Source: a virus
Taxonomy: Duplodnaviria; Heunggongvirae; Uroviricota; Caudoviricetes
IMG/VR virus record: IMGVR_UViG_2695420487_000015
DNA length: 39,156 nucleotides
Strand: one strand, 5' to 3'
Under the pieces are notes generated by a model, which saw nothing but the letters and a program-made list of their open reading frames with translations, made no database searches and was not told the DNA's origin. Below are positions 31,811 to 33,528 of the stretch, one piece after another. The position numbers were made by a program, and so were the translations under genes. Position 1 is the stretch's first letter. Every line of letters begins with the position of its first letter.

Positions 31811-31820
31811 CCCCATTAAG

Positions 31821-33284
31821 TCATTTGCCGAGCATCTCTCTTAAATCTTGAGCCCAATGCGTATCGTCAGATTGGATCGTTCCTTCAACATCAGTAAGCA
31901 GTTTTTGCTCAAGAATTGTCTCGGCATTTCGACTCTGGCTAAAGTATCTTACCGTTTCGGCAAAGTCCCAATTCTCATCTGCAAGCAGGCGCGGCTGGAA
32001 AGAATGACAGTAGATTGCAGCTATATCTTTACCCATAAAGTCAAAATCAGAAATCAATTCGCAAATTTTCATATCACGTGCAAATTCGATCTGAGGGCCA
32101 TGCAAGGTTTCATATCCAATATGAATTATTGTTGATTCTCCAATCGGAGCCTGCTTTACAGCCTGAACAAGTACCCTTTTTATATCTTTTGCCTTTTTAT
32201 CGACAGACTCATCAGCGAGACAAATCCATTTTGCGCAGAAAGGCATTTCTATCTCATCAATGAATACATTTATTGTACTAAGTTCATCATTGCTAAAAGT
32301 GCATAACTTTGCGTTGCAAACCATTGTATAACTTCCAAACGGGTCATACTGGTCATCTAATAAGGAATTTAATTGAGGAGAAGGATATTTCACATGCCAC
32401 TTTCTTAAGTGGTTATCCACCCGTTCCATATCAATTAAGTTAGCCTGAACCAAAATATCATCGCTCTCACATACTGCAATCTTACCTTTCACAAGATGAT
32501 CAGAGCCGTAAATTTTTGCTACAGCACCGAGAAACACATCGATACGCGTTTTTACTATTTCAGTTTTGAAAATCACATCAAAAAAAACTGGCTTATGGTA
32601 TCGAGTAATCAATGGTCGAGCCATTTCCCACCGCTTCAACCACTCCGCCCTTTCTTCTTCTGAGTACTGAGTCACCTTTGCTAATCGCTTGCACTCAACA
32701 TAAAAAATATCAGTGCCTTTAACAACTTTGAGGTCTGGTGTTTTATGAGCTCCTGTTTCTGGAATGAACTCAACTTCCCAGCCATTTTTCAAATAGCAGA
32801 TAGCCACAACCAACTCAAACAAAATGGAATCAGGCTGGTTGATTGTCTTAACAAGCAAGTCATTTAATTTGGATTCAATACCTTTGACCTGCTTCAACTT
32901 TTCGCTATGTTCACCGATAACTGCGAAAAAATGCCAAATTCTTGACGACTGAGCTGGCTCATCTACTGTTGGGCGATCAGCCAAAGATTCAACTAAGTAC
33001 AAATACCATGCAATCCAGTCATCATAGAATGCCAGGCGTGCATCTTTCTCATGGAAAGAAACGTCAGATTTTCCTGTGAAAAGGCGCTCCGACATTTCGC
33101 GGAAGTAAGCCAAAACCGCCCCACGACGCTCAACCCATTTATCTTCACCCATTACATCAATAAACCAACGGTATGCTGTTTTTATCTCTTTGACTAATGG
33201 TGCATCATGTCTATGATTGAAGCGTTCAAAAAATGCAGCATACTCATCTTCAACACTCTGATTTTTGGTATTTTTTTCACCCAT
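31821..33284 (-). CDS. Cargo gene: 487-aa protein with PD-(D/E)xK-like nuclease core motif, candidate defense or abortive-infection protein
   Basis: AT-rich. Start at ATG 33284 (MGEKNTKNQ) with an AGGTGG RBS. Central GWEVEF..(12)..TPDLKVV..(7)..IFYVECKRL fits the E..PD..ExK pattern. Lies between int and attR. Confidence 0.55.
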   Translation of the reverse strand: MGEKNTKNQSVEDEYAAFFERFNHRHDAPLVKEIKTAYRWFIDVMGEDKWVERRGAVLAYFREMSERLFTGKSDVSFHEKDARLAFYDDWIAWYLYLVESLADRPTVDEPAQSSRIWHFFAVIGEHSEKLKQVKGIESKLNDLLVKTINQPDSILFELVVAICYLKNGWEVEFIPETGAHKTPDLKVVKGTDIFYVECKRLAKVTQYSEEERAEWLKRWEMARPLITRYHKPVFFDVIFKTEIVKTRIDVFLGAVAKIYGSDHLVKGKIAVCESDDILVQANLIDMERVDNHLRKWHVKYPSPQLNSLLDDQYDPFGSYTMVCNAKLCTFSNDELSTINVFIDEIEMPFCAKWICLADESVDKKAKDIKRVLVQAVKQAPIGESTIIHIGYETLHGPQIEFARDMKICELISDFDFMGKDIAAIYCHSFQPRLLADENWDFAETVRYFSQSRNAETILEQKLLTDVEGTIQSDDTHWAQDLREMLGK

Positions 33285-33528
33285 CGTGATTCCACCTAGC
33301 TTATGCGGTTTATGCATTCAAGATTAACTAACTTGCATGTTATCATTTTTGATATCAGGCAAGTGTTAGTCACGCTATAAAGGCTAGGTTGCCGTTTAAA
33401 GGCAATATGATAAGTGGCGATAAAGTGGCGGTAGAAATGGCTGATAATGTCTAATCACTGGCAAACGCTGGCCATTTATGTCAATGATAAATAAAGCAAA
33501 CTATTGATTTTCGGTTGTTCAGGTAGGA

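Follow-up and report, generated by a model that had tools for sequence, protein, structure and literature searches.

What is encoded between the integrase gene and the attachment site of a prophage when no domain database recognises the product, and whom does such a gene serve, the lysogen, the phage or the gene itself? This question is raised by a stretch of DNA of 39,156 nucleotides (IMG/VR record IMGVR_UViG_2695420487_000015, assigned to the Caudoviricetes; the whole stretch is called the window hereafter), which comes from an Escherichia coli chromosome (100% match to strain 10, NZ_CP048330.1, over the query region) and in which about 31.9 kb are taken up by a 186/P2-like prophage, integrated in tRNA-Ile(CAU). 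The gene in question, the cargo gene at 31821..33284 on the minus strand, encodes a protein of 487 amino acids (aa) that is known in RefSeq as a 'hypothetical protein' (WP_052935640.1). It has the core of a PD-(D/E)xK nuclease with conserved catalytic positions, it stands alone, the slot in which it lies is exchanged among related prophages, and homologues are found beside antiphage defence systems. We consider it probable that the gene serves anti-phage defence of some kind, either restriction-type or trigger-licensed. The more particular reading that we favour, a stand-alone, trigger-licensed anti-phage nuclease following the logic of Shedu and GAPS1, is drawn by analogy with those systems and is held tentatively, at somewhat less than an even chance.

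The cargo gene and its nuclease core

The prophage is bounded by a 49-nt direct repeat. The attL core (1628..1676, plus strand) lies within the intact tRNA-Ile(CAU) gene (1598-1673) and the attR core (33529..33577, plus strand), 48/49 identical to attL, is the displaced 3' part of tRNA-Ile. The tRNA with the CAU anticodon at 1598-1673 is read as Met by ARAGORN and is given as tRNA-Ile in RefSeq, in which the attR remnant (33470-33574, 105 nt) bears the label 'tRNA-OTHER'. The order of genes at the right end of the prophage is cII, an apl-like gene, cI (30231-30806), int, the cargo gene and attR, and the tyrosine integrase gene of this 186-like prophage (30803..31810, plus strand) is convergent with the cargo gene, the stop codon of which is at 31821-23. 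Only 10 bp separate the int stop codon from the cargo open reading frame (ORF), and 244 bp lie between the cargo start and the attR core. A first-pass annotation of the window had placed a minus-strand gene of 487 aa here; the gene is as described, although the coordinates then given to it, 31811-33528, are those of the whole int-attR interval. The longest ORF (31821..33317, minus strand) would give 498 aa from its first ATG, but the start at ATG 33284 is preferred over the in-frame ATG 33317 because a Shine-Dalgarno-like AGGTGG, read from the sequence at 33292..33297 on the same strand, stands 7 nt upstream of it. The gene was described in the same annotation as AT-rich, and this is borne out by its guanine + cytosine (G + C) content of 0.40 versus 0.51 for the whole prophage; its G + C content at third codon positions is 0.36, and the two values for int are 0.49 and 0.53.

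Scans of the 487-aa protein against Pfam, NCBIfam and PADLOC-DB 2.0.0 (2023) gave zero matches at E <= 10, phmmer and profile searches of PDB sequences gave nothing meaningful, and the sole model match was phrog_37220 of the PHROGs collection (E 2e-46), the function of which is unknown. The protein is nevertheless one of a large family, as a search of 5.8 billion proteins found 206 homologous clusters at 90% identity (best E = 0), all named 'hypothetical' save two that had been auto-named 'Restriction endonuclease', in Enterobacterales, Vibrio, Aeromonas, Pseudomonas, Psychrobacter and several Bacteroidota; an alignment-based, word-indexed search brought almost no gain (208 clusters versus 206). 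In addition, a profile search of 1.84 billion representatives gave 1,068 representatives of 50%-identity clusters at E <= 1e-3, of which 552 reached E <= 1e-10, and among the top matches listed the relatives are mostly 430-500 residues long and match end to end. The 206 clusters and the 1,068 representatives being homologous to it, the cargo ORF is not a chance ORF. No paper text mentions six RefSeq accessions of family members or 'phrog_37220', so that the family itself, of about 1,000 clusters and without a domain model or a literature, is new here.

In an AlphaFold2 model built from 63 homologues (mean predicted local distance difference test score, pLDDT, 90.1; predicted template modelling score, pTM, 0.90), an all-helical N-terminal domain of no recognisable family (residues 10-145 approximately, 32850..33257) with a low-confidence loop at residues 72-82 is followed by a PD-(D/E)xK nuclease core (residues 151-239, 32568..32834) and an alpha/beta C-terminal region (residues 240-487, 31824..32567), all encoded on the minus strand. 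The core consists of a helix, three strands, a helix and a strand, that is, the alpha-beta-beta-beta-alpha-beta fold of the PD-(D/E)xK superfamily, and it also contains the E...(P)D...(D/E)xK signature; because the fold and the motif are both present, the cargo protein belongs to this superfamily. The motif reads E157 / P183-D184 / E197-x-K199, and the predicted catalytic residues are E157 (32814-16), D184 (32733-35), E197 and K199. Before any model existed, restriction-endonuclease spacing of the E / PD / ExK type had been proposed from the sequence of the central segment, in which GWEVEF (residues 168-173), TPDL (182-185) and VECKRL (196-201) are indeed present, but the first acidic residue is not in GWEVEF as then supposed; it is E157, in the helix ...LFELVVA.... 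Structure prediction had been named as the check on this proposal, and the model shows a core of the nuclease type.

The residues D152, E157, P183, D184, E197, C198, K199 and R200 are invariant in the alignment of 63 sequences. A more divergent set of 77 sequences (20-56% identity) retains E157 and D184 without exception, and conservation of E197, C198 and K199 in it is no lower than 90%. The flanking regions are conserved as well. In the N-terminal domain these residues are W50, R53, D89, W93, Y94, R115 and G124, and in the C-terminal region there is a second conserved cluster, in which Q378 and H388 (32121-23) do not vary among the 77 sequences and conservation of E392 and E443 is no lower than 90%, to which H476-W477 may be added among closer relatives. 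Like the family, this arrangement of accessory domains, with its second conserved site, is new here.

When the model was compared with PDB and BFVD by Foldseek, no global match was significant, and the local matches were confined to Hjc, VRR-NUC, HindIII and I-Ssp6803I. The best structural match outside the nuclease core is the non-catalytic central (scaffold) domain of acetyl-CoA carboxylase, and in the model this match probably falls in the C-terminal region, residues 240-487. As for sequence families, 20 of the 63 members match Mrr_cat (PF04471) below threshold (best E 0.014) and the window protein does not match it at E <= 10; several distant members also match it below threshold, the highest score being 18.4 bits versus a Pfam gathering threshold of 21, so no member passes.

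The int-att slot and its exchangeable contents

The first-pass annotation regarded the place of the gene as a classic moron (cargo) position, and three kinds of observation support this: the foreign composition of the gene, the unrelated genes in the same slot of sister prophages and the homologues in cargo slots of other elements. The integrase of the window was found in 46 E. coli genomes and the cargo gene in 39 of 5,426 complete E. coli genomes. The comparison of otherwise similar prophages that had been proposed as a check was carried out on four relatives whose integrases are 92-94% identical to that of the window, and their int-att slots carry unrelated cargo: a 301-aa protein with a weak HEPN match (L003), a SEC-C protein together with a DUF6602 protein matching NucC-type PD-(D/E)xK effectors (E 8e-32; L004), a 482-aa protein with no match (L005) and a 415-aa protein with a weak DzbB match (E 6e-8; L006). 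The possibility that the gene is a conserved core gene of this phage group, which had been named as an objection to a defence role, was rejected since sister prophages lack it. Sister prophages with near-identical integrases adjoin nfeF and presumably occupy a second copy of tRNA-Ile(CAU), as the neighbourhood of nfeF is what we take to be the site of that second copy, ileX, on the K-12 map.

Members of the family fill this slot in other prophages, namely in at least 16 IMG/VR contigs of 186-like phages and also in Salmonella. At the loci L044-L055, L016 and L017 the integrase proteins are 95-98% identical to that of the window and the adjacent cargo proteins 64-68%, which indicates cassette-like replacement of alleles rather than co-divergence, and at least four cargo alleles (100, 73, 68 and 65% identity) are found beside the conserved integrase. 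Conservation between alleles is highest in the nuclease core and lowest in residues 1-30, 241-270 and 451-480; a hypervariable sensor segment was looked for and rejected, as the divergence is spread along the whole protein.

Homologues are found in various other places. At the P2 Z/fun position (tail-fibre assembly/tail sheath), Escherichia phage 899 and Yersinia phage GMG73 carry homologues of 28% identity, in phage 899 together with a DUF3800 protein, and the Z/fun slot of the window prophage (8398-8528, 131 bp) is empty. A Pseudomonas phiCTX-like prophage has a homologue in the region after the portal gene; this cos-proximal position beside the portal gene and the Z/fun slot are among the variable slots of P2-family prophages (PMC9122126). 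In lambdoid prophages of E. coli and Proteus the homologue follows the replication genes and precedes the nin-like region, the E. coli copies being placed between ydaW/DUF977 and hokD in 11 complete genomes. Furthermore, homologues adjoin the integrase in integrative and conjugative or integrative and mobilizable elements (ICE/IME) of Ectopseudomonas and Pseudomonas mangrovi and in a mini-island of Aeromonas. The family thus occurs in each of the three variable slots of P2, in a moron slot of lambdoid phages and at the edges of ICEs. In this the cargo gene resembles the P2 exclusion and hotspot genes (old, tin and Z/fun; PMC9122126), which are likewise AT-rich accessory genes in variable slots of P2-family prophages, but it belongs to a different protein family, and the int-attR slot of the window lies outside the analysis of Rousset et al. 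2022 (PMC9122126).

The same int-att slot may also be used by a defence family that has been validated. GAPS1 is a single-protein PD-(D/E)xK defence from Vibrio GMT islands in which D313 and K328 are essential, and 78% of its homologues are in Klebsiella pneumoniae (bioRxiv 10.1101/2023.03.28.534373). One coding sequence of Klebsiella phage ST437-OXA245phi4.1, a 186-like member of the Peduoviridae (L066), has been called GAPS1-like by Phold (TM-score 0.87), and directly after the integrase of this phage lies gp49 (35848-37398), a hypothetical protein of 516 aa with D316 and a D329-x-K331 motif that matches the active-site numbering of GAPS1. Moreover, gp49 is confined to Klebsiella phages, with close copies in prophages of ST258, ST512 and ST437 K. 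pneumoniae. From the D316/K331 motif and the Klebsiella distribution we infer that gp49 is the GAPS1-like coding sequence of Phold; in that case the int-att slot is also used by a validated defence family, and the copies in Klebsiella prophages would explain the Klebsiella majority among the GAPS1 homologues. The evidence from all these prophages points to one more cargo hotspot of the 186-like group, at the int-att junction, which is new here.

Defence neighbours and competing explanations

Outside prophages, 17 chromosomal loci of the family (species-representative genomes, long contigs) were scanned with PADLOC and Pfam over at most five ORFs per side, and a match to a defence model was found within five ORFs at nine of the 17, four of them unambiguous and the rest partial. 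Defence genes are a small minority of all genes, and it is against this general knowledge that the nine loci are read as an enrichment. In Flavobacterium petrolei, full-length GajA and GajB (E 2e-292 and 1e-209) are encoded 77 bp upstream on the same strand, in a Chitinophagaceae bacterium GajA and GajB are divergent at a distance of 701 bp, and in Mangrovibacterium there is GajA with a GajB disrupted by an insertion sequence. HamA and a helicase (Hachiman) are encoded 161 bp downstream at the P0009 locus, and F. taihuense has an Avs4-like protein of 1,780 aa, encoded 55 bp upstream (E 2e-29). In addition, an Upx-like protein (Pedobacter, E 8e-40), an MkoA-like (Mokosh-like) protein (Rahnella, E 5e-101), a PD-T4-1-like protein (Puia, E 6e-18) and an AriA/GajA-like ATPase (Enterovibrio, E 2e-28) were found. 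Where the family gene lies 77 bp downstream of gajA-gajB on the same strand it could be co-transcribed with them, and the adjacency to Gabija may be a plain clustering in defence islands or a functional link. Gabija was seen beside the family gene in three Bacteroidota lineages (L027, 6080-11338; L028, 5760-11374; L020, 1-11383).

An independent prediction is in accord with these neighbours. In a published survey of 1,000 diverse genomes with DefensePredictor, the protein WP_194933767.1 is listed as a 'Putative novel defense gene' with a mean log-odds of 13.1 (Table S4; PMC13092281), and this protein is distantly homologous to that of the window (E 8e-26, with 25% identity along about 400 residues). 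The suggestion that the gene might be a new single-protein defence is strengthened by the defence-island neighbours together with this score of a distant homologue, and it is kept here as what we infer from them.

The solitary organisation of the gene is consistent with a single-protein system. A restriction-modification partner was considered and rejected, as no methyltransferase is annotated anywhere in the prophage and methyltransferases are absent from the 25 commonest Pfam families listed for the 150 neighbour ORFs of the 17 loci, among which there is no recurrent partner; a linked cognate methyltransferase, as expected for a type II enzyme, was accordingly not found. A toxin-antitoxin partner was also rejected, because no plausible small ORF lies beside the gene in the window and neither a small partner nor an antitoxin gene recurs in the neighbourhoods examined. 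Likewise, neither a NucC match nor an adjacent cyclase was found for the window protein, as would be seen in a NucC/CBASS system.

It had been remarked from the sequence alone that the protein belongs to no recognised defence family, and this agrees with the lack of a PADLOC-DB 2.0.0, Pfam or NCBIfam match and with the lack of a detectable relation to Shedu and to the putative GAPS1-like gp49. As in GAPS1, a single gene on mobile elements encodes a PD-(D/E)xK core amid large domains of unknown function, and the spacing from D to K is 15 residues in both (D313-K328 in GAPS1, D184-K199 in the window protein). Unlike the nuclease of GAPS1, which is near the C-terminus, that of the window protein is central (residues 151-239 of 487, with D184/K199 followed by 288 residues), and there is no Klebsiella cluster among the listed, named members of its family. 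An indirect comparison, made through the putative GAPS1-like gp49, gave an hhalign probability of 0.1% with the family profile and no BLASTP match at E <= 10, and tblastn of phage records with the window protein did not recover the Klebsiella gp49 prophages; the relation to GAPS1 would accordingly be at most a functional analogy. Shedu (SduA) differs similarly: the window protein has no DUF4263 or SduA match in Pfam or PADLOC, and the Shedu nuclease is C-terminal whereas about 250 conserved residues come after the core here. The family further resembles the PD-(D/E)xK systems validated by DefensePredictor (PMC13092281) in being an E. coli accessory gene with a restriction-fold core in an otherwise novel protein. 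Single-gene defence with a restriction fold in prophage hotspots is a well-known kind, accounting for 13 of the 42 new DefensePredictor systems (PMC13092281).

As a stand-alone, trigger-licensed nuclease, the cargo protein would work in superinfection exclusion, as an accessory of the 186/P2-like prophage. The central PD-(D/E)xK domain (E157, D184, E197, K199) is predicted to be a metal-dependent phosphodiesterase that would cut nucleic acid. At a guess, the tightly packed N-terminal helical domain and the C-terminal alpha/beta domain (Q378/H388/E392/E443) would restrain the enzyme in the uninfected lysogen, and the same flanking domains might license or target the nuclease when another phage infects. 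Unrelated accessory domains would then have arrived at the logic of Shedu and GAPS1. The cargo promoter should lie within the AT-rich intergenic region of 244 bp upstream of the gene (33285..33528, minus strand).

Several points weigh against this reading. A sigma-70 consensus scan of the upstream region on the strand of the cargo gene gave no match, and since no promoter was found there, expression of the gene in the lysogen can only be supposed. After excision and circularisation the gene comes to lie downstream of the late genes D and ogr/B, a place which also fits a function in the lytic cycle. The roles given to the flanking domains are guesses. The enrichment at nine of the 17 loci was judged by general knowledge only, without a matched background, and several of the matches are partial. 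Finally, none of the 42 validated DefensePredictor systems (Table S8) has any of the family motifs ECKR, KTPD or GYET, the validation rate of predicted genes was 45%, and among units of low score with remote homology to defence proteins, including six PD-(D/E)xK nucleases, one of 24 defended (PMC13092281), so that a nuclease fold alone is weak evidence.

The alternative that survives best, though we think it unlikely, is a solitary restriction enzyme of the type IV kind, which would cut modified DNA or DNA with some other foreign feature directly, needing neither a methyltransferase nor activation, with the flanking domains as readers. Searches of Pfam, NCBIfam and folds found no SRA, EVE, YTH or winged-helix domain and no nucleoside triphosphatase (NTPase) motor in the protein, so that a reader of modified DNA, if present, would be a novel one. 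Mrr-type and other type IV enzymes differ in this respect, as the family lacks Mrr_N or any other known reader domain and its accessory domains are unrelated to theirs. In addition, the threshold of Mrr_cat is reached by no family member, and the best match outside the core, the acetyl-CoA carboxylase scaffold domain, has no known role in DNA binding.

A nuclease of benefit to the phage, for degradation of host DNA, for recombination or processing of its own DNA or for interference with satellites, and expressed with the late genes after excision, is decidedly unlikely. In the excised circle the gene is directly downstream of D and ogr/B on the same strand across attP, as such a function would have it, and a member of the family sits in the int-att slot of at least 16 IMG/VR 186-like contigs. 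Against this, the gene is dispensable, as shown by sister prophages (integrases 92-94% identical) without it and by its presence in so few of the E. coli genomes (39/5,426); its homologues also have non-phage settings, namely chromosomal defence islands and an ICE/IME, and it moves among unrelated slots and types of phage.

It is improbable that the gene is a selfish or addiction function, that is, a nuclease of toxin-like or homing type by which its mobile element is stabilised or spread. There is no antitoxin or immunity ORF adjacent to the gene in the window and none recurs elsewhere, the proteins of about 450-500 aa with two conserved accessory domains are unlike the compact homing endonucleases, and the recurrent Gabija, Hachiman and Avs-like neighbours are a better fit to defence islands. 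A catalytically dead PD-(D/E)xK fold serving as a binding or scaffold module, such as the inactive domains known in other proteins, is very improbable indeed, as conservation at each of the four canonical catalytic positions is complete or no lower than 90% throughout the family.

A more ambitious form of the trigger-licensed nuclease is conceivable but doubtful. In it the protein would be the founding member of a widespread single-gene immune family (about 1,000 50%-identity clusters in Gammaproteobacteria and Bacteroidota), the acetyl-CoA-carboxylase-like module with Q378/H388/E392/E443 would be a new infection sensor, and the slot would be shared with GAPS1-like and NucC-like nucleases. Binding of a small molecule or a phage protein to the C-terminal module might then switch on the PD-(D/E)xK effector.

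If the cargo gene is indeed a trigger-licensed defence, it represents a defence family missed by Pfam, NCBIfam and PADLOC-DB 2.0.0, so that surveys relying on them would not count it, and a new accessory-domain architecture controlling a restriction-fold nuclease. The int-att junction of 186-like prophages would likewise be an extra hotspot beside gpA-gpQ (PMC9122126). In addition, because this prophage lineage occurs in clinical E. coli isolates and in isolates producing extended-spectrum β-lactamase (ESBL), the gene could influence the host range of phages used in therapy.

Other features of the window

The window prophage has a second AT-rich cargo island (G + C content 0.37), between the baseplate gene V and the morphogenesis gene S. 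It contains a RipA / 8xMP octameric membrane protein (12699-13412, plus strand; Pfam E 4e-36) and a 362-aa DUF4238 protein (13681-14769, minus strand; Pfam 27.7 bits with a cut-off of 27; no PADLOC match), and a single DUF4238 protein from a P2 hotspot has been reported to give strong resistance to T7 (Rousset et al. 2022, PMC9122126). The gpA-gpQ (old/tin) hotspot of the window holds no recognisable defence system; it carries an Acyl_transf_3 acyltransferase (23953-25170, minus strand), possibly a gene for surface modification or serotype conversion, and a truncated DinI pseudogene (about 25470-25675).

On the host side, the left flank (1-1038) is an alpha-amylase-family pseudogene with an internal stop. 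In the right flank (34325-35698 and 36600-39156), ypjCB is a pseudogene broken into two ORFs, a fragment of a recombinase is present and the ypjA/ehaD autotransporter gene begins, and the internal imperfect repeats of ypjA/ehaD make up the repeat families D1 and D3. Finally, a near-identical direct repeat of 20 nt, ATTCACAnAAAGTGAATTAA, which is itself an inverted repeat, occurs at 2063-2082 upstream of D and at 29819-29838 in the cII/apl region, and it could be a binding site for a shared regulator or a chance match.

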